From NCBI RefSeq assembly GCF_052425735.1, contig NC_135764.1, positions 6,634,001 to 6,698,000 of the forward strand: 64,000 nucleotides of DNA, given 5' to 3'. The stretch comes from Oculina patagonica (lineage: Eukaryota). The stretch's first letter is position 1. The number at the start of each line of letters is the position of its first letter. The position numbers and the translations under genes are program-made. The notes under the pieces are model-generated. The model was not told the origin of the DNA and made no database searches. It saw only the letters and a list, made by a program, of their open reading frames with translations. Below, in pieces: positions 1,824 to 19,825 of the stretch.

Positions 1824-2071
1824 ACACACATGTAAATTAGGAGTTGTGGCACAAATTGTGACAACTCGCTCGGCTCGCCCGGGCTCGCCTCGCTCCTTGT
1901 CACAATTTGTGTCCACAACTCCTAATTTACATGTGTGTGCGGAACGCAAGACGCCTTTCTTACCCCTCTCGCGAAACGAGTTGCAAAAAAGGCGTTGGCG
2001 GCACCTCTAACGGCCCGCAGCAACAGAGAGCGCCACCTGTGTGCTAGATTTATTTTTCAATTGAACAAATA
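1824..2071 (+). repeat. Left TIR (248 bp) with 115-nt terminal hairpin 1824-1938
   Basis: Reverse complement of 17914-18161. Arms 1824-1864 and 1897-1938 pair with a single 1-nt bulge. Confidence 0.95.
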
Positions 2072-2085
2072 TTTTTCTTTAGTAT

Positions 2086-5000
2086 ATGCAACAGATGGCT
2101 GCCGCAAGATATTCGTCAGAAGTTTTGCAAGCTAAGATGGAGGAAAACCTCCGTGAATTTCAAAGAAACCCCCAAAGAAATTTGTCTTTTTCACTCGCCC
2201 ACACCGATTTTAACGAATGGCTTAGAGTATGGAAAATGGACATACCCGAAACTGACACAAACAACAAAGATCTTTTAATTTTTGCAAAAAAACACAAAAA
2301 AAAGTTTTATGATCTTTTGGAAAGCGAAATTGATGACTTACGAAGCTTAAAAGCAAGCTTTGGACTTGAAGTTAAATTTTCGATACAAAGAGACGGAGTT
2401 ACGCAACACATGAACCACTATTTCAGTGAAAGAGAACCGCACGTGTTTTCAAAAAACACCAAAGAAGAAATCGAAAAAGAGTTTGTCAGATTTATCGAAA
2501 AAGCAAAGGGAAAAATTGAGGCTTGGTCAGAGAAGGGCTCGGGGTGGAAAATTGAAAGAATAGAAATGGCGTATATCAATGTCGCGCGTTATCAGCCATT
2601 GAGAGGGGGGAGTTATCTGCCTTTACCACCAAAATTGGCAAACAAAAAAGCAGTTATTAACGTGCAAAACAGGGATAACGAATGTTTGAAATGGGCTTTG
2701 AGAGCTGCATTATTTCCGCCAAGAGATGGGAAAAATCCGCAAAGAACAAGCAGATACCCAGTTGACGACGGAATAAACTACAATGGAATCGATTTTCCAA
2801 CGCCTCTAAAGCAGATTGACAGGCTTGAGGCGCAAAACAACAACCTTGCAATAAATGTGTTTGGATGGGAAGACGACTGTGTGATACCTCTCAGAACAAG
2901 CAAAAAAGAAAATAGCATTTCCCGTATAAACCTTATGTTAATTGAGTCAGGATTAATTCAGCACTACTGTTTTGTAAAAAGAGTATGCGCTCTGCTTTAC
3001 GATCAGACTAAATCACACAACAAAAAACACTTTTGCATGATGTGCTTGACCGGTTTTACAAGAGCAGACTTGCTCGAAAAGCACGAAAAATATTGCAATG
3101 GAGTTAACGGCAGGCCAACAAGAATCGAAATGCCGGAAGAGGGGAAAAACACTATTTCTTTTAAAAACTACCACAAACAAATGAAAGCGCCTTTTGTAAT
3201 TTACGCCGACTTTGAGGCATTGTTAAGAAAGATGCAAGGATGTAAACGCGAAACGGCCGAGGAGCGCCAGAAAAGAAAAGACCTTGGTGAAGAAGTGAAA
3301 GACATGAAGCCGAGTTACACAGACAAAACAGAACAGCACGAGGCATGCGGATTTGCTTACACAGTTGTAAGGAGTGATGGTGAACACGAAAAAACATTTG
3401 TGTACAGAGGACAAAACGCCGTTGAAGTATTTTTGAACTGTCTTTTAAGTGAAGAAAGAAAAATAAGATATGAATTGTCAAAGCCAAAACCTCTTGTGAT
3501 GACGGCAAAAGACTGGGTAAACTTCAAAAATGCAACCAATTGCCACATTTGCGAAGAAACGCTAATGAAACAAAACTTTTTGGACTCTTTGCCAGTTTGG
3601 ATTGGAAACAAAAAGGAGCTTAATTACTTTGGGCAGATGCACAAAAAATGTTATTACAGAAAGGAAAAAGAGGAAAAAAACCTGGATACCGAAGCCCACT
3701 ATAAGCTAAAAAAGCTTGAAAAAGAAACACACAAATTAGCAGCGAAAAACCAAAAAAACTGCTTAGCGTGCCACAAGCCGCTTATCCAGCCGAACTACAA
3801 GGATGTGGTAAAAGACCATTGCCACATAACAGGCAAGTTTCGAGGAGCCGCGCACAACATTTGTAACTTGATGATGAGAATAAATCCAAAAAATGTCCAA
3901 ATACCAGTTGTATTTCACAACCTAAGGGGCTATGATGCGCACCATTTAATGCAGGCAATGTCAAAGATTTCAAAAGAGGCACAGAAAGAGGTAAAATGTG
4001 TCGCAAACAACATGGAAAAATACATCACATTTTCATTTGGCGGACTGCGTTTTATTGACAGCTTAAACTTTCTTCAAGGAAGTCTTGATTCACTTGTAAC
4101 AGCGACACCGAAGGAGTCATTAAATATAACAAAATCTATTTCAACACAGTCTGATGAAAGTTTTGAACTTCTTTGCAAAAAGGGAATCTATCCTTACGAA
4201 TACATGGACTCATGGGAAAGATTTAGCGAAACAAGTTTGCCTGAAAAAGAAAAGTTTTACAGCAAACTTAATGATGAGAACATAACGGATGAAGAGTACA
4301 AACACGCGCAAAACGTGTGGGAAACCTTTGGCTGCCAGACCCTGGGCGACTACCACGATTTGTACGTTAAGACAGACGTTTCTCTGTTGGCTGACGTTTT
4401 TGAAAACTTCCGAAAAATCTGTCTTGAGAAGTACGGGTTAGATCCCGCGAATTATTACACGACGCCAGGCCTTTCTTGGGACGCACTTTTGAAAAAGACA
4501 GGCGTGGAGCTTGAGTTACTTACGGACTATGAAATGCATCTTTTTGTTGAAAGGGGATTAAGAGGCGGAATTTCGATGGTAAGCAAAAGATATGCAAAGG
4601 CGAACAACCCTTATGTTGAGGGATTTGACCCGAGCCAGCCAAAAAAATACATAATGTACCTCGATGCGAATAACCTTTACGGGTGGGCAATGAGCAAGCC
4701 GCTCCCAAAAAGTGGTTTTAGATGGAAAAAGGTTATGCCGACAGAAAAAGAAATAATGACAAAAAAAGAGTTTGCAAAAGCTGGATGGATTTTAGAGGTG
4801 GACTTAGAATACCCGAAAGAGCTGCATGACGCCCAAAACAGCTATCCATTAGCGCCAGAGAAAAAGAAAATAAACAAAGAAATGTTTTCACCTTACCAAA
4901 AGAAAATAATAAAAAATCTTGATTTAAAACTGCCAGAAAGCGAAAAGCTTGTATTGACTCTCGAAGACAAAACTAATTACGTCGTGCATTACGAAACTTG

Positions 5001-5936
5001 CAGTTTTATTTAAAACAAGGAATGAAACTTAAAAAAGTGCACAGGGTCTTAGAGTTTGAACAGGAATGCTGGATGGAGCCCTACATCCGGATGAACACAG
5101 AATTCAGAAAAAAAGCAAAGAACGACTTTGAAAAGAACTTTTACAAGCTAATGAATAACTCGGTTTTTGGAAAAACAATGGAAAACCTGAGAAACCGTGT
5201 AGACATAAGAATAGCGCGAAGCGACGAAACAAAGAAAATAAGAAAATTAGTTGCAAGCCCATTGTATTCAAGGCATGTAATGTTTTCAAACGATCTAGTT
5301 GGAATAGACATGCGAAAAAGCAGGCTTTTTCTTAATAAACCGGTCTACACAGGCATGACCATCCTTGACGTAAGCAAGCTATGCATGTATGACTTCTTTT
5401 ACAACCATCTGAAAAAGGAGTACGGAGAGCGTTGCGAGCTTTTGTATACAGACACAGACAGCCTTTTGCTTGAGATAGAAACAGAAGACGTTTACGCGGA
5501 CATGGCAAAAAACATTGACAAGTACGACACAAGCGACTACCCAAAAGAGCATTCACTTCATTCAAACGAAAACAAAAAGGTGTTGGGAAAAATGAAAGAC
5601 GAATGCGCAGGAAAACTAATTTCAGAGTGTGTTTGTTTGAGGCCAAAAATGTATTCAATAATGACAGAAGACAAAAAAAATATAAAAAAAGCAAAGGGGG
5701 TAAAAGAGTGTGTGACAAAGAATAAGATAGATCATGAAAACTTCAAAGATACACTTTTTCAAAACAAGGAAAGCTTTCACGAAATGCACATGCTAAGAAG
5801 CTATGCCCACGAGATGTATTCAATAGTGGTAAACAAAAAATCGCTGTCGCCTTTTGACTCAAAGCGATGGATAGCGGATGATGGGATACATACAAATGCT
5901 TACGGGTATAAGTTTTGCGAAACAAAGCCTACATAA
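2086..5936 (+). CDS. polB: Protein-primed family B DNA polymerase, split by a 1-nt frameshift near 4993 (ORFs 2086-5013 and 4998-5936)
   Basis: Exonuclease motifs YADFE, FHNLRGYD and YVKTDV. Polymerase motifs YLDANNLYG, KLMNNSVFGKT, YTDTDS, PKMY and KAKGV. An endonuclease VII-like segment DHCHITGKFRGAAHNICN is present. Adding one base gives the expected YVVHYRNLQFYL. Confidence 0.95.
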
Positions 5937-5978: not shown

Positions 5979-6968
5979 CTAAGTGCTTGGTGGTAACTGT
6001 GTATTTGGAGGAATAACAAGCAATTCTTCACGCACGAAGCCGCGCTTTGGACCATCGTGCAAGTAATAAAGAACTGGCTGATTAGGTTTAGTAACAGACC
6101 TTTCAATGCTGTAGACTTTTAATGACCAAATCGGATCTGTAGCCCTTTTTACGCCGCCTTCCAGCTCGCCAGGTTGGTAGAGAAAGCGCACATTAACGAG
6201 GGAGGGGAGTTTTTTTTCTTTCTTGCCAACAGGTCTTGTATATTTTGAGGACGGTTTTGACGAAACAGCCTTTTCTTTAATTGCAGCAGCAGGTTTCTTA
6301 CCAGTAAGACTGGTTACTTCGTTGTTCAGAGCGGCAACAACTTCGGGAAGCCTTTTTACCCACGCTGTCGACCGCTGGCCAGATGGCAGGTTCATCTCGA
6401 CACCGTACTGATAACCAAACAGGCGCCCTGCCAGTGTTTGATTAAAACGTTCAACAATAGCTTGATCTCTGTGGATATTAACACGCCCGCGTCTAATATA
6501 GGTTTTGTGATTTTCCATTTCTTTGGTAACAGCTCCCATGAATTCGCGACCAGGGTCAACTTGCAGCATCTGTGGCCATTTTAGTGCACTTCGCCTGTAA
6601 ATTGTCTGAAAACCTTTTGCAACCTCAGTTGAATCTTTGGAGGTCAAAGGCTCAGCCTCTTTGAAACGGCTGGCAACGTCAACAACAGTCAGCGCGTATT
6701 TGTAAACTTTTCGCCCTCGCGGCAGTTTGTCGTGTGGCAGAAAAAGAAGGTCCGCCTGGTGGACCGCGTTAGGGGTAGAAACATCGAATTTTGGGCGAGG
6801 AACGTATCGTGGTGCCGGAAGGTAGATCTGCCAAAGGGCCTGCTTAACTAGCCACTTTTTTGCGGCATCTTCGGAAACCTTGGCAGCCTCGGCTAATTTT
6901 TTTATCGCTGCAATTCCCTTCCAGTAGCACTGGGGGCTATAGTAGACTTTCGAGATCTTTGCATCCAT
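5979..6968 (-). CDS. int: Retroviral-like (rve, DDE) integrase of Polinton type
   Basis: Motifs HQADL, YALTVVDVASRF, QVDPGREF and AIVERFNQTL give a D-D-E triad. The ORF is intact (329 aa). Confidence 0.93.
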   Translation of the reverse strand: MDAKISKVYYSPQCYWKGIAAIKKLAEAAKVSEDAAKKWLVKQALWQIYLPAPRYVPRPKFDVSTPNAVHQADLLFLPHDKLPRGRKVYKYALTVVDVASRFKEAEPLTSKDSTEVAKGFQTIYRRSALKWPQMLQVDPGREFMGAVTKEMENHKTYIRRGRVNIHRDQAIVERFNQTLAGRLFGYQYGVEMNLPSGQRSTAWVKRLPEVVAALNNEVTSLTGKKPAAAIKEKAVSSKPSSKYTRPVGKKEKKLPSLVNVRFLYQPGELEGGVKRATDPIWSLKVYSIERSVTKPNQPVLYYLHDGPKRGFVREELLVIPPNTQLPPST

Positions 6969-6994: not shown

Positions 6995-7420
6995 TTAAAG
7001 AAACCGAAAGGCAGCGTACCCAAGAGCAAGAGCGCCTGCGCCAACGAACATCAGTTCACCTTGTTTCTGCTGCTCGCTTGGCTGATAAAAATCAGAGAAC
7101 TTGGGTTCTTTCGGAGGAATCATTTGTTTGTCAGGATGTGCCTGGTTGTAGAGTTTGAAAGCGTAGTCTGTGTTCGTAAAGTTCTGTTTCGCTTGCTGTT
7201 TGATCTCATTGTTGGTTTCGATCCAGTCGAGAAGCTTCGTGCGGTCGCGAGAGTACTTCGCGTACGCTGCCTGGTAAGCCTCGAGAGCTTTGTCGTGTCT
7301 TTCTTTTTCTTTCAAAGCGGCGTCATCTCCGCCACCCAAAGCTCGAGCAAGATAGTTGCCGCCAATGAAAGCAGCAGCGTTCAAGATAGCTCCGCCAGCC
7401 ATAATCGCGACGCTTGCCAT
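6995..7420 (-). CDS. Viral protein, 141 aa, hydrophobic N- and C-termini around a coiled coil (putative membrane/virion protein)
   Basis: ATG-initiated, tightly packed in the minus-strand gene block, with Gly/Ala-rich hydrophobic ends. Confidence 0.75.
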   Translation of the reverse strand: MASVAIMAGGAILNAAAFIGGNYLARALGGGDDAALKEKERHDKALEAYQAAYAKYSRDRTKLLDWIETNNEIKQQAKQNFTNTDYAFKLYNQAHPDKQMIPPKEPKFSDFYQPSEQQKQGELMFVGAGALALGYAAFRFL

Positions 7421-7455: not shown

Positions 7456-7674
7456 TTAATTGGTGGGGAGAATTTTCTGGTCCTCGAGATACTGTTTAAG
7501 TGCAACGCTGCCAGCCACGACGGCTGTGAACTTTACATAGTTCATAAAACTGCTGCTTGGGTCAGATGTGAAGTTTTCTTTCACAACTTTTTTGGCAGCC
7601 CAGCCGATTCCGGCGGCGAGACCTGTAATGGTGGCGGCATCCATGAGTGTTTTCACGAGCTTGTTGTCAGACAT
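7456..7674 (-). CDS. Small viral membrane protein, 72 aa, two hydrophobic segments
   Basis: Segments AATITGLAAGIGWAA and FTAVVAGSVAL. AT-rich upstream motif shared with neighbouring genes. Confidence 0.7.
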   Translation of the reverse strand: MSDNKLVKTLMDAATITGLAAGIGWAAKKVVKENFTSDPSSSFMNYVKFTAVVAGSVALKQYLEDQKILPTN

Positions 7675-9573: not shown

Positions 9574-10173
9574 TCAATAAGAAAATTTTGTGCCGTAAGG
9601 GTGGCGATGAGAAATGACAAGATGCGAAAACTTATTTTTTTTTAGCTTCAAAATGATTTCTTTGTAATCCTCATGGGCAAGTTCGCCAGCGTAATCCTCA
9701 AAGATTGCCTTCGTGGTCTTGGCAGAGGGGGTGTAAAAGAAAACGATTGCCGCAACATTTTCGCGGAATGAGGATGTTATGCTTGTCAATTTTTGAGTTA
9801 ACACCCATACGCTCAAACCTGCGTGGCGAGCAGAGAAAGCAAGATTCACCAACTCCCCTGTTCTTCCTTTTACATCTTTCGAAGCAGCACAGTCGTCGAG
9901 GATGATAAGCGTGTTCGTTCCCTCAAAAAGAAATCTTGAAAGCCTTAACAAAGATTCAACCTCGTGCTGCTCGCAAATTAAAACAAAAAATCGAAGATCT
10001 TCCTCAGCAAAGCGATAATAAGTCTTGTTGTGCGCGAACGTCGGGCAGATGAGCACGATGTAGTCAAACTTGCCTCGGAAAGGGCCACAAAGCTGATTGA
10101 CCACGTATCTTGTTTTTCCTGAGTTCGTTGGTCCCACAATGAGGGCGTTGAAGGGTATATTGGCAGGATCCAT
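9574..10173 (-). CDS. A32/FtsK-HerA-type genome packaging ATPase
   Basis: Walker A GPTNSGKT, Walker B LIILDD, and the A32-family motif ARHAGLSVWVLTQ. Confidence 0.92.
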   Translation of the reverse strand: MDPANIPFNALIVGPTNSGKTRYVVNQLCGPFRGKFDYIVLICPTFAHNKTYYRFAEEDLRFFVLICEQHEVESLLRLSRFLFEGTNTLIILDDCAASKDVKGRTGELVNLAFSARHAGLSVWVLTQKLTSITSSFRENVAAIVFFYTPSAKTTKAIFEDYAGELAHEDYKEIILKLKKNKFSHLVISHRHPYGTKFSY

Positions 10174-10218: not shown

Positions 10219-11472
10219 TTATAAAAGTACAGATTCTAACTGCCTGCCAAGTATATTCATTTGGGCGTCGCTGATTACGTAAATGTGGCAGTTCAAATTA
10301 CCTGAGCCGCTTGCTTTCCTCTCTAGCTCAAGCTGGACACCGTCCTTTGTGTTCACAAGGCGCGTGCCGCTTCCGTGCATCGAGTGGTCAGCCATGGAAC
10401 GCAGATCAATAAGAAGGCCAAACTTGTCTTCTGTGTAAAACTTTTGCAGAGTCATGTGCTGCGTTTTATTTTTTTCTTTCATGTAGAATCTTTTAACTTC
10501 TCCCCAAATGTCCATTCCTTCGATGCCGTTGTTGTACAGCATGTTTGGCGAGCCGTTGACAGTGATGCTTACTTTTGTAAGGTCCGGGTTAATGTACTTT
10601 TCCGAGCTCCTTGCACCTTTGTTATATTGCTCAATAAATAGGAGCAAGATACCTTTCATGGACCTCCTCTGCGGGTTGACCCTTAGATTCAGACGTGTGT
10701 CGGAGCCTTTTGCAAAAGTCACCACTTTAACACGCTGGATGTGGTCGTAAGCGAACTCTTTGCCGCCCGAATAAGCGCTGAACGCTTCATCTGCAATTTC
10801 CTTGCTTCTTATCATCTCGTACTCCAGCTGGATGTTTGTCAACTTGTATTTCAGTTTTGTTGTATCTGAGCCTCTGACCACATGTTCGGCTGCCGCGAGC
10901 TTCAGTTCGAACACAAGATCGTTGTATAGTGCCTGAGGATAAAATGCCCCATGGTCAGTTAAAATCTGGTGATCCAGGCGGATGCGGTATTTATTACCAT
11001 ATAGCTCATTCAGCTTTTTTTCTGCTTCGACTCCTGAAGTTTTCTTATCGCCAGCATTTGAGCGAATTTTGTTAAGGTCCTCGCTCTGAATGCCCTCTGG
11101 CACCCTGTCGTCGCGCTCCTCCTGCGAAAGGAAAAAATCCTCAAATATTTTGTAGATGTCATAGCCAACCGTGTCCTGCACGACGGTGCCTTCGTACTTT
11201 ACAACAAAATCGTCGACCAGAGCTCGGCTGACGTTGTCAACCAGAAAGTTGTTGGCATGGCCTCCGCTCAAGTCGATGTTGAAGCGCAGCGCCAGCGAGC
11301 CAGGCACAATGACCTCGTTTTCGTTCAGCTTGGGCACTGAAACATACAACGTTTCCTCTGGATTGGCTTCTGTGCGGTCAAAAGTGATTCGTTTTACCGC
11401 GCGCTCGGCTTTCAGTGCGCCGAGTATTTTCTCTGTGCGTCCCGGTCGAAGGTTTTCTTGAACAGCAGCCAT
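10219..11472 (-). CDS. Probable double-jelly-roll major capsid protein
   Basis: 417 aa, beta-strand-rich, adjacent to the packaging ATPase. Patterns such as YKLTNIQLEYE, KVSITVNG and FGLLIDLRS resemble Polinton/PLV major capsid proteins. Needs structural confirmation. Confidence 0.72.
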   Translation of the reverse strand: MAAVQENLRPGRTEKILGALKAERAVKRITFDRTEANPEETLYVSVPKLNENEVIVPGSLALRFNIDLSGGHANNFLVDNVSRALVDDFVVKYEGTVVQDTVGYDIYKIFEDFFLSQEERDDRVPEGIQSEDLNKIRSNAGDKKTSGVEAEKKLNELYGNKYRIRLDHQILTDHGAFYPQALYNDLVFELKLAAAEHVVRGSDTTKLKYKLTNIQLEYEMIRSKEIADEAFSAYSGGKEFAYDHIQRVKVVTFAKGSDTRLNLRVNPQRRSMKGILLLFIEQYNKGARSSEKYINPDLTKVSITVNGSPNMLYNNGIEGMDIWGEVKRFYMKEKNKTQHMTLQKFYTEDKFGLLIDLRSMADHSMHGSGTRLVNTKDGVQLELERKASGSGNLNCHIYVISDAQMNILGRQLESVLL

Positions 11473-11538: not shown

Positions 11539-12933
11539 ATGGCAACAGGTGGTGATGATTTTGGATTCGAGGACCCTGATTTGGACAAAGATCTTGACCA
11601 CAACAGTGATAACGATGATGAAGAGGGACAAGAGGTCGACACAACCCGACCATTTCAGCCCGGGGAGGCATCCACACCCTACCATGGGGGTGAACAACAT
11701 GAAATGCAAACGATGCAGCACGAACAGAGCGGGCTGCCAGATACATCCTACGACGAAACACCTTTTCTTGAAAGAACCCCTTCGATAAGTGATCTTCAAA
11801 AAGAAAGTTTTTTGCGGCAAAAACTTAAAAAAGCTGTAGACACGATAAAAGGCAAATTCCCCAAAGCAAATTTTGAAAAAATTAGAATTAGAAGAGGCAC
11901 TGGGAAAAATGAGGGGAAAATTGTTGCTATAGGAACTAAAAAAGGCGAGTACAAGATTCTAAAAGATAATGAGTCAGGCTTCATGAAAAACTTTTTAGAC
12001 AGCTTCAAAGATGAACTTGGGCCGTCAGCTGAAGATCTTATTGCTCAAGACAATGAGAGCATAAGAGATGAACGTCAAAGATTAAGAGAAGCTGAAAGTC
12101 AAATACAACAGGCAGAAACAATTGACATGCAGAAAGAAAAAGCCACCCAAGAAGTAGAAGATTTCAGAATAAGAATCGAGCGAATAAATGCCAAGATGGA
12201 ACAACTTGGGTCAAATGTTGAAAATGAATCAGAATTGCGCAGACTTAAGCAACTGAAAAAAAATCTTGAAAAGGATTTTGAAAACAAAAAAAAAGAAGTT
12301 GCTGCTCTTGAAAAACAAGCTAAGCAGAAGGCAAAAGAACAAACACGAGTCGACCAACTAAGGGCAGGCCTCGCTGCCAAAGAGAGCGAAAGAAACACAT
12401 TGCAAGAAAGGCTCAACGACACAAGAGCGTTGGATGATCTAAAAGAAAAAGAAGCCGAGCTGAAGCAACAAAACGAGGAAGATCAAGCTGTTATAGAGGA
12501 TGAGAATGCATCCCCCACTAACAAACAAGCTGCGGAAGAAAGAGTTGCAGAAAGAACCGAGGAGCTCGGGCGTTTGCAAACGCAGATTGCAGAAAGAGAA
12601 AGGGCGCTTCCACTTCGTGAGAGGATCAAAGAGATCTTCAAAAAATATGGCGTGACAGTAACAGCAATACTTCTTGCTGCTGGTGTCACGATTGGTTCTG
12701 TAATTGGTGCCATTACAAACTCTTTGAAGGCCACCGGCAAAGCGTTGGGAAAAGGCCTAAGTGATATTGGCTCAAAGGTAGCATCAGCTCTGCCTGGTCT
12801 CATTGGCTCGATTGCGAAATTTCTTTTCAAAACCGCTGGTCAAGTAATTGGATTTCTTGCAGAGCACACCTGGCTGCTTATCCTTGCTGTGGTTGCTTTT
12901 CTTGTTGAAAAATACATCAAAAAGAGACGTTAG
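11539..12933 (+). CDS. Viral coiled-coil protein with acidic N-terminus and C-terminal membrane helices, 464 aa
   Basis: Long E/K/Q/R heptad region, then GVTVTAILLAAGVTIGSVIGAI and WLLILAVVAFLV followed by a basic tail KKRR. Confidence 0.8.
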   Translation: MATGGDDFGFEDPDLDKDLDHNSDNDDEEGQEVDTTRPFQPGEASTPYHGGEQHEMQTMQHEQSGLPDTSYDETPFLERTPSISDLQKESFLRQKLKKAVDTIKGKFPKANFEKIRIRRGTGKNEGKIVAIGTKKGEYKILKDNESGFMKNFLDSFKDELGPSAEDLIAQDNESIRDERQRLREAESQIQQAETIDMQKEKATQEVEDFRIRIERINAKMEQLGSNVENESELRRLKQLKKNLEKDFENKKKEVAALEKQAKQKAKEQTRVDQLRAGLAAKESERNTLQERLNDTRALDDLKEKEAELKQQNEEDQAVIEDENASPTNKQAAEERVAERTEELGRLQTQIAERERALPLRERIKEIFKKYGVTVTAILLAAGVTIGSVIGAITNSLKATGKALGKGLSDIGSKVASALPGLIGSIAKFLFKTAGQVIGFLAEHTWLLILAVVAFLVEKYIKKRR

Positions 12934-14593
12934 CGCATAAGGGTGTAGAGCAAAGCTGCTGCTCCAACCGCGCCAACAGCAACAGTTGCTTTGTTTATTT
13001 CGTGTGAATCATTGGCTACGGCCTTCGTAGCTTTAGCGCTTTGCGCGTTGCTAGCTGGTGTTTCAGCAGCGCTTGCGGCGGGTGCCTGATTTTTTTTGCT
13101 GTGGCGCTCTTGTGTATAGGATTTGAAGGGTGGCTGTTTGGTGGGTTGATTTTTGATTTTCCTCCGGCCATCAGTTTAAGAGCTGCTTTTTTTGTAGCTT
13201 TATTAACCTCATCATTCACTCCTAATTTCATCCCAACAACAGCCTGCTTAAGCTGGTTATTGTAACCAACAACGCTTTCTGTGTTTATCACCATACGAGC
13301 GGGCATCAGCCAGGCACCTGGGCAGACTGCAAGGTTAAGCCGAACCTTAGCTTCGTCGATGGCTAGTTGGTATCTTTGGACCGACTTTGCCAGATCAGGT
13401 TGCCTTATAGCGTCTTCAACCAACACGAGGAACTCACTTTGCGCTTCCTTTGCACGGCCGCCTGTTCCAAGTATGCTACTTCGAACGTTCACCTGCGAAC
13501 CGAGAATACAGTAGACAAAAGCCTCTATCGACTGGTTTACTCTCGACAAACCTGCCTGAGTAAGCCCTTCAGTGCCGTTAGGACAAAACCAGTCTGCCTG
13601 TGCATATGCAGCGTCGTCTGGCTCGATGTATTGAATCAAGTTACCTTTGCTTGCAGTTCCACCTTCATCCGAAAATTTATCGTAATCGGGGTATTTTGCT
13701 CCAGTTTTGTTTGGTCCAATGTTAGTAATCCAGATATAAACGTTACCAAGTCCGTGGTTTGCGCCTGTTGTGAAACGGAAATCGCTTGACGGGTCGACAC
13801 CGAACTCAGCGCATATTCTTTTGTAAGAAGCCACGTCGTACTTGTTGTCGAACTGGCTAAAAGTGGGGTCGCCTGGCAAGGCGCTTACGCTCTGAATTCC
13901 CCCCATCTGAAACAATATTCGCCTTATCGTGAAATAAACGTGAAAAAGATAAAAATTACGCACAATCGGTGGCAAGCTAAGAGCTGAGTGCTCTTCATCG
14001 AAAATATCTCGACTTATACCGCAGCCTGTTGTCGCGCACCATACCGCAAAGTTAAGTTGCTGTGGCCAATAGCCCATATTTTGGCTAGCAAGCCACCTTT
14101 TTGACTCTTTTCCTGATGTATGCTTCAGTTTTGTTTTTTGAAAAATCTCTCTTAATTTCGTTGTGAAATATTGGTCTGGTGTGACGTAGATGTTGATTTT
14201 GCTGTTAAATATTTTTTTCAAACTCGGTGCGGCTTCGTGAAATCCAACCGCGGGAATTGGCAAAGATGAGCCTTTTGCGCCGCTTGGTGACAGCTGTTGT
14301 GGAAAACCGCCTGAAATTTGATTCACCCCCAGTGCTTTTTTCATCTCTGGGCTCCAATATTTGCTGTCAGAGCCAAAAACATTTATCAAATGGCCTTGCC
14401 CTGCCTTGTAATAAATGTCTGCCGTTGCTGTGTGGTTGTACGCGAACTCAACCTGTGCAACAAATTTTGTTCGGTCAGAGTTTGGATATTTTGCAAGAAA
14501 AGGTTTCCATGCATTGTCTTTTGCCGCTTTAGAAATTGTAGTTGCTTCTGGGGTTTTCATCCACTTCATAAAACCTCTTGTTTTTGCATCCAT
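12930..14593 (-). CDS. Large viral protein of unknown function; probable true C-terminus with membrane anchor reached via a -1 shift at the A8 run (13090-13097)
   Basis: The 525-aa ORF spans 13016-14593. The -1 frame continues NQAPAASAAE...ATVAVGAVGAAALLYTLMR* and its TAA (12930-12932) overlaps the TAG of the convergent gene. Confidence 0.75.
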
Positions 14594-14639
14594 GGTCCTC
14601 TTTTATATTAAACATTTTTTATTTTTATTTAATATAAAA

Positions 14640-15335
14640 ATGGTTGTGCTGACTGTTACCACAAAAGAAAATCCGAACACTGTTTATTTTGACCAGCCTA
14701 TTCCAAAACCAAGCTATATCCGGCTTTTAAGTTGTTCTCTTTACAACAGCTGGAATAGTTTGGAAAAGGATGGAATAGTTTTTTATAAACAAGTGAACAA
14801 GGAAGAAAAGGCGCGTTATATACGGCAAGGAAACTTCTCACTCGATGACATTGGGAGTATTTTTGAAAAAGGATTTCCAGAGAAAAACATGTTTTCTGTA
14901 ACAAAAGGCATTGCAGGCCGTTCATTGATAATAAAAGCAAAAGAGCCCAATTTAAAAACTTTTGGACTGAATGAAAGTCTTATTAAGTTCTTTAATTTGC
15001 CTTGGTTTGAGAATTACGCAAGTATTGAAAAGGAATTTTTTGAAACAATTGAGGTAAATAATGTTTCAAATCCTAAAAATTACTTCATCAACTGTGACCT
15101 TATCGACAAGCAACAAAGCTTGCTAAATGGTAAGCCATCAAGCCTTTTAGCGTTTTTTGACATACGTGGAAAACCGTATGAAAAAGTTTATTACCAAAAT
15201 ACACATTTTAACGTCTTGCGCGACGTTTCTGCTGAAGAAAATGTATCATCTCTGACTCTTTCGATTAGAGATGAGAATGGAAAGCCATTCGATTTTAACG
15301 GCACAAATCTTACATATGAGTTGGAATTGAATTAA
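14640..15335 (+). CDS. Probable minor capsid (penton-like, single jelly-roll) protein
   Basis: ATG at 14640 follows an AT-rich spacer. Motifs YFINCDLI..NG.SSLL..F and LSIRDENGKPFDFNG..YELEL are typical of Polinton/PLV minor capsid C-termini. Confidence 0.68.
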   Translation: MVVLTVTTKENPNTVYFDQPIPKPSYIRLLSCSLYNSWNSLEKDGIVFYKQVNKEEKARYIRQGNFSLDDIGSIFEKGFPEKNMFSVTKGIAGRSLIIKAKEPNLKTFGLNESLIKFFNLPWFENYASIEKEFFETIEVNNVSNPKNYFINCDLIDKQQSLLNGKPSSLLAFFDIRGKPYEKVYYQNTHFNVLRDVSAEENVSSLTLSIRDENGKPFDFNGTNLTYELELN

Positions 15336-15371: not shown

Positions 15372-16058
15372 ATGTCATCTGCTAATGTTCTCCCGAGTGC
15401 CCCTGCTTATGGTGATCGCGAAGAAAACAGCGTAAAACAAACACTGTATCCCGCTTTGCCAAATCAACCAGAAAACTTTAGGTTAACAAAAATCAATCAA
15501 ATTTGTTCAGAATTTGACAAAGAAGTTGCAAAATACCGAGCTGTTTTGAAAAAGTATAAAAAGGTGAAGTCTTTTTTTCATTATTCCGCAATTTCAATGG
15601 GTGGTTTGTCCAGTGTTCTCTCTGCTTCCAGCCTTGGAACAGCGGTAACAGTCGTTGGTTTGCCGGTAAGCGTTCCTCTCGCAGCATGTGCTGCAATTAC
15701 AGGCGTTTTGTCAGCCGCTTTCACTGGAGCGAGCAAAAAACTTGAACCAAAAATTTTGAAAAATAATGAAATTACTTCGCTTGCTGTTGCCAAACGTGAA
15801 ACTGTCAATAGACTTGTCTCTGCCGCTCTCATTGACAATAAAGTTGATGACAAAGAGTTCCAAATTATTTTGGATGAATATTCTCGTTACATGGCTCTCA
15901 AAGAGACTGTTCGCAGGCACCTTTCAAAAAATTTAAGCCAAAAAAAGTCATCTCCACAGCCGGACATTGAGAAACTGAGACAGGAAATTCGACAAGAAGA
16001 ATTAGATAGGTTAAAAAAAAGAATATCAGCAGAGTCGAAATCAGATTTGAGAAAATAA
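15372..16058 (+). CDS. Viral membrane-associated protein with PSAP and LYPxL motifs and central hydrophobic hairpin, 228 aa
   Basis: VLPSAPAY and TLYPALP near the N-terminus, with a ~45-aa Gly/Ala/Ser/Val-rich hydrophobic region flanked by amphipathic helices. Confidence 0.75.
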   Translation: MSSANVLPSAPAYGDREENSVKQTLYPALPNQPENFRLTKINQICSEFDKEVAKYRAVLKKYKKVKSFFHYSAISMGGLSSVLSASSLGTAVTVVGLPVSVPLAACAAITGVLSAAFTGASKKLEPKILKNNEITSLAVAKRETVNRLVSAALIDNKVDDKEFQIILDEYSRYMALKETVRRHLSKNLSQKKSSPQPDIEKLRQEIRQEELDRLKKRISAESKSDLRK

Positions 16059-17913: not shown

Positions 17914-18161
17914 TATTTGTTCAATTGAAAAATAAATCTAGCACACAGGTGGCGCTCTCTGTTGCTGCGGGCCGTTAGAGGTGCCGCCAACGCCTTTTTT
18001 GCAACTCGTTTCGCGAGAGGGGTAAGAAAGGCGTCTTGCGTTCCGCACACACATGTAAATTAGGAGTTGTGGACACAAATTGTGACAAGGAGCGAGGCGA
18101 GCCCGGGCGAGCCGAGCGAGTTGTCACAATTTGTGCCACAACTCCTAATTTACATGTGTGT
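17914..18161 (-). repeat. Right TIR (248 bp) with terminal hairpin 18047-18161
   Basis: Reverse complement of 1824-2071, with no differences seen by eye. Confidence 0.95.
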
Positions 18162-19825
18162 CGTCCCTTGAGAGTAGACAAGAATGTTCCAAATTTTGCC
18201 CCACATAACTGCTATTCTTCTATTTTCGCTTGTAAACAAGCAAAAAAAGTCGCAAAAACGAGACACGGACATACAGAAAGCCTCCGACTCAATCTACTAT
18301 CGGTTCTATGGTGATCTGCGGTGGGCGCCAGTTGTGGACAAACACTTTCTTCTTGACACGCCACGAAATCTGCGAAAGAAAGAAGAATTCAAGAAAGTGA
18401 AGTTGATGATCAGTTTCAACAGTCAGGAGGGTGGGAACGCTCTTGGGACTACGCAAAGTGTGGACAATGGAGTAAGTCCGTTATTTTTCAGGCAATTTGT
18501 AACAAAGCTTGCCCATGGGCGAAACAGCAGGTGAGTTGCGATTTTGTTGTCAGATTAATCGTGTAATACTATCGCTTCCAGATCGGCTTTGATCAGTGTA
18601 CGTAGCTCCATGTTTTATATCTATAACTGTACTTACAGAAGATCAGCTTTTAACGTGCGTTTTCTTACTGGGTGCTTTTTTTTGTTAAATATAACCACCT
18701 ACAACAAATGTTTCGTCTCTTAGGGAAGAGAATGCTGACCTCATCGCGGACGCGTTGGAGTTCATGTACACCCCATGGCCTGACAACAGTGATAAATACG
18801 CACTAAGAAGCCAACTTGTAGACCTCATCGGTGATTACATCTACTTTGCACCAAGTCACGAGGTCGCTGATTTTCACAGCAAAGTTGCTCCAGTGTACAT
18901 GTACGAGTTCGCCCATCGGAAAACGATCGGTAACAAAAATAAGGAATGGATGGGTGTGGTTCATGGTGATAACAAACCTTACGACTTTGGATTTCCTTTT
19001 CTTCCTGGAACTTCTTTAGATTATGACGCAGTCGACAAAAACGTCAGTTCGTTTATCATGGAAGCGTACACAAACTTCGCCAAGACCGGCGATCCAACAC
19101 CAAAGCCAGTCAGCGGTGTTACGTGGGAGAGGTACAACTCCAGTCACAGAGCTTACCTGCGAGTTGACGCTCATCCCAAGATGGCGGCGGCGTTTGCTCC
19201 TCGGCGAATGGCTTTCTGGAATGATTACCATCCTAAACTGGTGCAAGTGAAATTTGATACTAAAGATGAAACGGTCAGCGGTGCTAGTACAGCTGTTGCC
19301 CTGAAATTGTTCATCCAGCTTGCTCTTGTCCTCATTTTAGTGATAATTCATTGAACTAAGTTTAAGTGGATAAAAGAGAAACGTGAGATAATTCGCAGGG
19401 GTAGAGAGATAACATTACCATTGATTAAGGTCCCAGTCGTTTTGTATTTTAGTGTATCGCACGAAATCTCAGTTAGCTTGATTATCACAGTCGATGTTTT
19501 CTGAAACATTCAAGAATTTTAAATGACACAGGAAGAAATTATATTATGAGTAAAAAGGTAAAAAATAATTTTGATATGAGCTAATAACATGCAACTTGTG
19601 TTTGATTCCAATTGAAAGAAATGTTGTGGGTGTTAACATGTAGAATTTTTATTCCTGGAATAAATAAGTGAAAATTTTGTTCAAAATTCAAACTTCTTTA
19701 ATTCCTTTCTTTTATTTAATTAATTCCGTGGTCCTTTGGAAGGAACGCCATTCGATTTCTAAAAATATCTCGGCATCATTTTGGTCCTGAACATCATTAA
19801 TTACGCTGGGTAAATAAATTTGCGT

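Follow-up and report, generated by a model that had tools for sequence, protein, structure and literature searches.

Hepatitis A virus reportedly recruits ALIX for non-lytic release, and hepatitis E ORF3 can be added as an analogue of the coral Polinton protein described here. Position independence together with exchange between Ser and Thr constitutes the grammar of late domains, and ligands of ESCRT serve lysosomal sorting and membrane repair as well as viral exit. The definitions of the late-domain motifs are available from the study in which a vertebrate iridovirus was found to bud via TSG101, ALIX, and Nedd4 (PMC4880917). The use of late domains by a non-enveloped virus is already known in the case of bluetongue virus NS3 (PMC7409164). 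Among Polintons, the nematode Mavericks have been proposed as enveloped on the evidence of a fusogen (10.1101/2022.07.12.499685), and according to Jeong et al. it "remains to be investigated" whether Polintons outside nematodes are enveloped as well (10.1101/2023.08.22.554363). Expression of Polinton capsid genes is on record for corals (PMC11131425), and the published guess for the SLATT (SMODS/SLOG-associating 2TM) proteins of Polinton-like viruses (PLVs) is an endosomal-escape pore acting at entry (PMC12220804).

In searches of the open literature, a link between Polintons and ESCRT or late domains was not found. By term search, ESCRT is not mentioned in the accessible text of PMC11131425, 10.64898/2026.06.19.733378, and 10.1101/2025.10.09.676808, nor are membrane, envelope, or gasdermin in that of PMC11161782 and PMC11296320. 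Late domains on the membrane protein of a naked virus represent a mechanism known from bluetongue virus, of which the Polinton case would be a further instance. The initial annotation of the locus had considered exit or membrane acquisition through ESCRT unexpected for a naked-capsid element, a surprise that was somewhat overstated given the precedents. To the question of exit, the Polinton family supplies a named protein and two named candidate host partners.

The Polinton and its hairpin protein

The candidate gene for an ESCRT-recruiting membrane protein (15372..16058, plus strand; 228 aa by translation) lies within a 16.3-kb Polinton in the window, i.e., the whole 64,000-nucleotide stretch of Oculina patagonica DNA that was analysed. 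The Polinton has perfect 248-nt terminal inverted repeats (1824..2071 and 17914..18161) with 5-bp target-site duplications at 1819-1823 and 18162-18166. The repeats, the target duplication, and the PolB, integrase, and A32 ATPase genes found around the candidate confirmed the Polinton identity proposed in the initial annotation. PolB of the protein-primed type (2086..5936, plus strand) is split into two ORFs in this copy, the second matching Pfam DNA_pol_B_2 (E 9.6e-7), while the retroviral-type integrase (5979..6968, minus strand) matched Pfam rve at E 2.5e-6, below the curated cut-off, and the A32-type packaging ATPase (9574..10173, minus strand) matched Pfam Pox_A32 (E 7.5e-11). A probable double-jelly-roll major capsid protein (10219..11472, minus strand) without a Pfam match was recognized from its ESM Atlas look-alikes (0.97-0.98), 10-24% of whose members carry DJR-like_dom, Capsid_N, or Capsid_NCLDV. 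The element also includes a 525-aa conserved Polinton ORF (13016..14593, minus strand) with a homolog in 46 of 80 loci. Directly upstream of the candidate is a gene without a Pfam match (14415..15335, plus strand; probable start 14640) that we take to be minor-capsid-like from its likeness to Polinton pentons. No protease family that could represent a maturation protease (adenain, an adintovirus trait) was detected among the 14 ORFs scanned by Pfam, and hydropathy revealed no signal-peptide fusion glycoprotein among the element ORFs.

Three further ORFs look hydrophobic or amphipathic: 6995-7420 (minus strand; 141 aa, with hydrophobic ends in the hydropathy profile), 7456-7674 (minus strand; 72 aa), and 11539-12933 (plus strand; 464 aa, a coiled-coil protein whose C-terminus has two hydrophobic segments), the 141-aa and 464-aa products having no late motif. 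Together with the 228-aa gene, these sequences suggest a membrane-related gene set. Homology between the 228-aa protein and the 464-aa ORF was not detected (probability 2.9%). The Polinton separates the two parts (35-1060 and 18184-19354) of one carboxylesterase-like gene copy in a tandem array of such genes, and on the left it is bordered by at least ~760 bases of unrelated origin, an arrangement suggesting that the Polinton may be nested within a smaller insertion.

The translation displays PSAP at aa 8-11 (15393..15404, plus strand), a TSG101-UEV-type motif, and LYPAL at aa 25-29 (15444..15458, plus strand), an ALIX-V-type motif, both as originally reported for this gene. Two AlphaFold2 models were obtained, the first from 57 close sequences (mean pLDDT 74) and the second from 60 diverse sequences (pLDDT 89, pTM 0.68). 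They give a layout of an unstructured tail, a long helical hairpin with a hydrophobic tip, and two C-terminal helices, with the helices located at aa 33-91, 94/97-154, 160-193, and 199-227. The N-terminal disorder claimed for the protein was reproduced, with aa 1-32 lacking secondary structure in both models and the tail having the lowest confidence (pLDDT 46-57 with 57 sequences and 58-70 with the 60 more diverse ones, in 10-residue blocks).

The hairpin (aa 72-118; 15585..15725, plus strand) is uncharged by K+R counts, consists of 45% Gly/Ala/Ser, and shows Kyte-Doolittle maxima of 1.55 (aa 79-97) and 1.96 (aa 94-112) around a predicted helix-turn-helix at aa 92-96. The peaks agree with the hydrophobic hairpin of the earlier description, and since the segment is moderately hydrophobic and rich in small residues, its designation as a membrane protein stays a prediction. 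Among 60 aligned proteins, the flanks at aa 53-68 and 119-134 are basic, averaging 5.9 and 5.0 K+R over 16 residues, respectively, compared to 0.13 in the hairpin. Under the positive-inside rule basic flanks stay cytosolic, and both ends of the hairpin are therefore predicted to be cytosolic. A conserved acidic loop (aa 155-163; 15834..15860, plus strand) with the family pattern DxxISDxEF was identified from the columns of alignment A3, in which E162 occurs in 60/60 and D155 in 53/60 sequences; this alignment consists of 60 hand-picked rows, mostly full-length with tails, such that motif column counts from it give a biased rate. The loop presumably resembles the latter half of an EF-hand loop, and with its invariant Glu162 calcium binding is conceivable.

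Searches of predicted viral structures with both models returned invertebrate iridovirus proteins as the best matches (A0A068QKD3, A0A5B8RH66, and S6DF61; E 6e-7 to 1e-5, 21-22% identity over ~220-245 columns), and these are likely homologs of the 228-aa protein judging from the modeled folds. The next Foldseek matches were giant-virus proteins, many of them SLATT-named, and one from a Polinton-like virus (E 0.0075-0.18). A SLATT-like layout, in which a basic helix precedes two hydrophobic ones, was visible in the hydropathy, the alignment, and the model. No Pfam match exceeded the cut-off for the protein or its relatives; below it, SLATT_1 matched 1/61 relatives (E 0.002, 18.5 bits vs. a cut-off of 26.3) and the RTX N-terminal family 6/61, likening the hairpin to pore-forming hairpins. 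Taken with the models, the core appears weakly SLATT-like. The ESM Atlas look-alikes of the protein were unnamed viral or cnidarian clusters (0.93-0.94) with low recognition, PHROGs gave scattered weak matches only, the IMG/VR scans and the phage collection search found no relative, and the PDB sequence search returned nothing under E 0.08.

Within alignment A3, the PADLOC model LeoBC was matched by 26/60 members (best E 3.7e-8) and BnzA by 3/60 (best 2.8e-10), both of which may reflect the common small-residue hairpin only; a 2TM effector model was matched by 1/60. The PDB fold matches were generic helical bundles, the best being BAR domains (Z 12.4 and 12.7); PspA (Z 10.1, rmsd 3.2, 122 aligned) tied with BAR, dynein, and SMC coiled coils, and CHMP1B matched at E 0.03. 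Due to this generic character, kinship with BAR domains or with ESCRT-III/PspA/Vipp1 was not accepted. Gasdermin was matched neither by Pfam nor among the PDB fold matches listed.

Conservation of the tail motifs

No P[ST]AP or YPxL-type motif occurs elsewhere in the window among 51 ORFs (12,132 aa), and shuffling of the 35-aa tail produced both motifs at a rate of 2e-5 in 200,000 shuffles. The first homolog search used tail words, and its counts (92/96 with P[ST]AP and 88/96 with YPx[LIVM]) are biased upward; conservation was therefore judged from a tail-free query, namely the core at aa 36-181, searched against 1.84 billion representatives. This query identified 720 clusters of relatives (50% identity) at E<=0.001, and motifs were counted in the best 150 of the 720, from which 53 rows without a tail of at least 10 aa or without the core start were dropped to leave 97. 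In these tails from the best 150, YPx[LIVM] was present in 71/97 (shuffled mean 3.2, maximum 8) and P[ST]AP in 37/97 (shuffled mean 0.4, maximum 4), being missing from the other 60; 28 tails had both motifs, 80 had either, and 17 had neither. Conservation across homologs, a test named beforehand in the initial annotation, thus held with a query that excludes the tail. Some of the motif-less tails may belong to decayed or mis-started copies. In the weakest score bin (n=50), YPx[LIVM] was kept in 38 tails and P[ST]AP in 15, while the non-tail part of the 97 relatives contained 0 of either motif in 16,909 aa compared to 2,748 aa of tails. From the tail sequences, we infer YPxL to be the probable family-wide signal and P[ST]AP a second, more labile one.

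The residues within and around the motifs were constrained, with Ser (29) or Thr (8) as the second residue of PxAP in 37/41 instances (other, 4), Leu/Ile/Val before YP in 69/77, and Leu at position +3 in 59/77, while the free position takes many residues. Placement was variable, the distance from YP to the core ranging from 8 to 48 aa and YPxL standing ahead of P[ST]AP in 10/28 double tails. A quick version of the core tree, with 43/84 inner branches open, required 9 changes for the YPxL-first rows, at least 3 of them by starred branches, suggesting that motif order may have been rearranged repeatedly in the history of the family. In 78 distinct segments from coral metagenomes, silent positions of the motif codons differ, both Ser codon families are used, and Thr occurs in 11/61; the silent-site variation and the Ser/Thr exchange indicate that selection acts on the peptide and exclude a DNA-level constraint. 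The family displays the motif consensus, above-chance conservation, position independence, and disordered setting of viral late-domain proteins.

The closest database protein was 99% identical and annotated from the coral O. patagonica, through whose genome the Polinton has spread. Among 150 scored of 411 candidate genome matches, at least 93 were full-length at 92-100% without stops, 4 were partial, and 53 were at 47-48%; both motifs were found in an open tail in 29 of the 30 closest copies examined. Two versions of the gene are present in the genome, sharing the first ~18 codons and then diverging (window position 15426; ~48% identity), each with its own LYPxL downstream of the common block. 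The identity of ~18 codons in otherwise 48%-identical versions suggests that the PSAP-bearing start and the upstream gene were swapped together as one block. In a second-version copy (L039 4600-9513), the major capsid gene and the coiled-coil ORF were different, whereas the integrase, ATPase, and minor-capsid-like genes were almost unchanged, and the pattern is, from these sequences, one of module shuffling between element copies.

Metagenome searches found 267 loci, of which 80 were kept and 63 had enough flank. In 61/63, the minor-capsid-like gene shares the strand and terminates <300 nt upstream, a fixed neighbourhood demonstrated for close, coral-type elements only. Both motifs were present in 58 of the 80 loci, YPxL only in 14, P[ST]AP only in four, and neither in four. 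In the RNA evidence, coverage by the 1 recorded RNA run was thin and patchy, while 3 guessed RNA runs cover all 30 element bins, for which reason their cover may stem from DNA.

A candidate exit adaptor and its rivals

By analogy with NS3, the 228-aa protein is proposed as an ESCRT adaptor for non-lytic, membrane-wrapped particle exit, with a probability of roughly 0.55. The gene adjoins capsid-module genes, and YPxL and P[ST]AP persist in its family. The uncharged hairpin is predicted to insert into a host membrane, leaving the basic flanks, the tail, and the C-terminal helices cytosolic. The tail very probably binds ESCRT, where, following the motif grammar, LYPxL would contact the V domain of ALIX and P[ST]AP the UEV domain of TSG101. 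In the last and weakest step, the cytosolic helices may gather capsids or element nucleoprotein before ESCRT-III cuts the bud, for which the plasma membrane, endosome, or nuclear envelope are candidate membranes. As no ORF resembles a signal-peptide fusion glycoprotein, a quasi-envelope or vesicle is favoured over an envelope capable of fusion.

Both partner domains are encoded by the host genome, including TSG101-type UEV exons, whose alignment with human TSG101 shows the equivalents of Tyr68 and Met95 to be conserved, and ALIX V-domain exons. One host exon is 93% identical to part of a coral ALIX that can be aligned with its human counterpart across 700 aa, and in that coral protein the position of human F676 is likewise occupied by Phe. 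The equivalents of Tyr68 and Met95 in TSG101 and of F676 in ALIX presumably take part in peptide binding. Four UEV-domain matches were identified in the host genome (L031-L034), two of them on contig C1 with internal stops that may be intron ends or decay.

An unlikely alternative is that the protein acts foremost as a SLATT-like pore, i.e., a viroporin or a pore for lysis or endosomal escape, which ESCRT sorts or sheds such that the cell survives. The SLATT-named giant-virus and Polinton-like virus proteins in Foldseek, the weak RTX and SLATT_1 Pfam matches, and the PADLOC LeoBC and 2TM effector matches described above are consistent with a pore, and such a role was proposed for PLV SLATT proteins (PMC12220804). 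However, the family matches all either miss the curated cut-offs or are of a kind common to helical hairpins in general, and an entry pore of an incoming particle has no clear need for ESCRT recruitment. A pore is also compatible with exit, as NS3 combines viroporin-like properties with a function as exit adaptor (PMC7409164).

It is more doubtful still that the protein serves as a decoy for ESCRT or as an adaptor for cargo, tying up ALIX and TSG101 or routing host membrane proteins to lysosomes, with the purpose of aiding replication or blunting defence and no role in particle exit. The same motif evidence would apply, the motifs alone fixing no outcome, although a free accessory gene is expected to move whereas the capsid-module neighbourhood is kept in nearly all metagenome loci with sufficient flank. 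Furthermore, PPxY, the motif for ubiquitin-ligase recruitment, was not enriched (4/97 tails vs. a shuffled mean of 1.7).

Real motifs with partners other than ESCRT, such as adaptor-complex mu subunits, SH3 domains, or a viral (capsid) protein, are improbable. By definition YPxL fits YxxPhi and PSAP fits PxxP, but YxxPhi needs no Pro at +1 and Tyr is nevertheless followed by Pro in 73/89 YxxPhi matches of the 97 tails. Among PxxP words, SA (29) and TA (8) dominate, with most other frequent words being by-products of YPxLP, and two ESCRT-type motifs occurring together in either order are hard to explain by unrelated partners. Finally, chance or a DNA-level constraint (an overlapping signal or homogenisation of gene starts), toward which the ~18 codons common to the two divergent versions could point, is refuted and left with a negligible probability by the tail-free counts and shuffle controls, the silent-site variation and Ser/Thr exchange, the variation of spacing and the order swaps in distant relatives, and the separate LYPxL of each version outside the common block.

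The exit-adaptor proposal can be tentatively extended to a large branch of animal Polintons, which would be quasi-enveloped DNA viruses whose two-helix protein recruits ALIX and TSG101 and, as a joint part of the same possible extension, shares its origin with the SLATT-like proteins of iridoviruses and giant viruses. If true, quasi-envelopment would explain movement between cells, between hosts, and into the germ line without lysis, as well as the difficulty of finding free naked virions. The exit-adaptor proposal itself predicts that the particles belong in vesicle fractions, and virome protocols in which membranes are stripped or discarded would miss them. The SLATT-like proteins of eukaryotic DNA viruses would gain a possible new function in exit, beyond entry.

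Comparison with known systems

Membrane-related genes are likewise found in other Polintons, such as GasderminX, Cupiennin, and PLA2X as membrane-active genes of adintovirus virion modules (PMC8502044) and the nematode Maverick fusogen MFUS-1 (10.1101/2022.07.12.499685). In the accessible text of both sources, however, these are read as entry or fusion proteins without a link to ESCRT (PMC8502044; 10.1101/2022.07.12.499685). Viral SLATT proteins are similar to the Polinton protein in having a basic helix, two hydrophobic helices, and a further helix, and are common in PLVs (PMC12220804), although late-domain tails are not mentioned for them in the accessible text of that study (PMC12220804).

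The identical late-domain pair, PSAP and LYPAL, is found in murine leukemia virus Gag (PMC4848597). In Gag these motifs sit on the capsid precursor and PPPY is essential (PMC4848597), whereas the Polinton motifs are carried by a hairpin protein of their own, without enrichment of PPxY.

Likeness to NS3 by sequence or fold was not detected in Pfam, the PDB sequence search, or the viral structure matches listed, and NS3 is in our reading an analogue, not a family relation. It is a protein of a dsRNA virus with PPRY (NEDD4) as its second motif in contrast to LYPxL (ALIX-type) in the Polinton protein, and has a 21-aa glycosylated lumenal loop where the Polinton protein has a tight predicted turn. 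In common with the Polinton protein, NS3 of bluetongue virus (Orbivirus) is small with two membrane segments and basic motifs before the first (PMC7409164). Its late domains include a PSAP bound by TSG101, and this viroporin-like protein links a non-enveloped capsid to non-lytic exit (PMC7409164).
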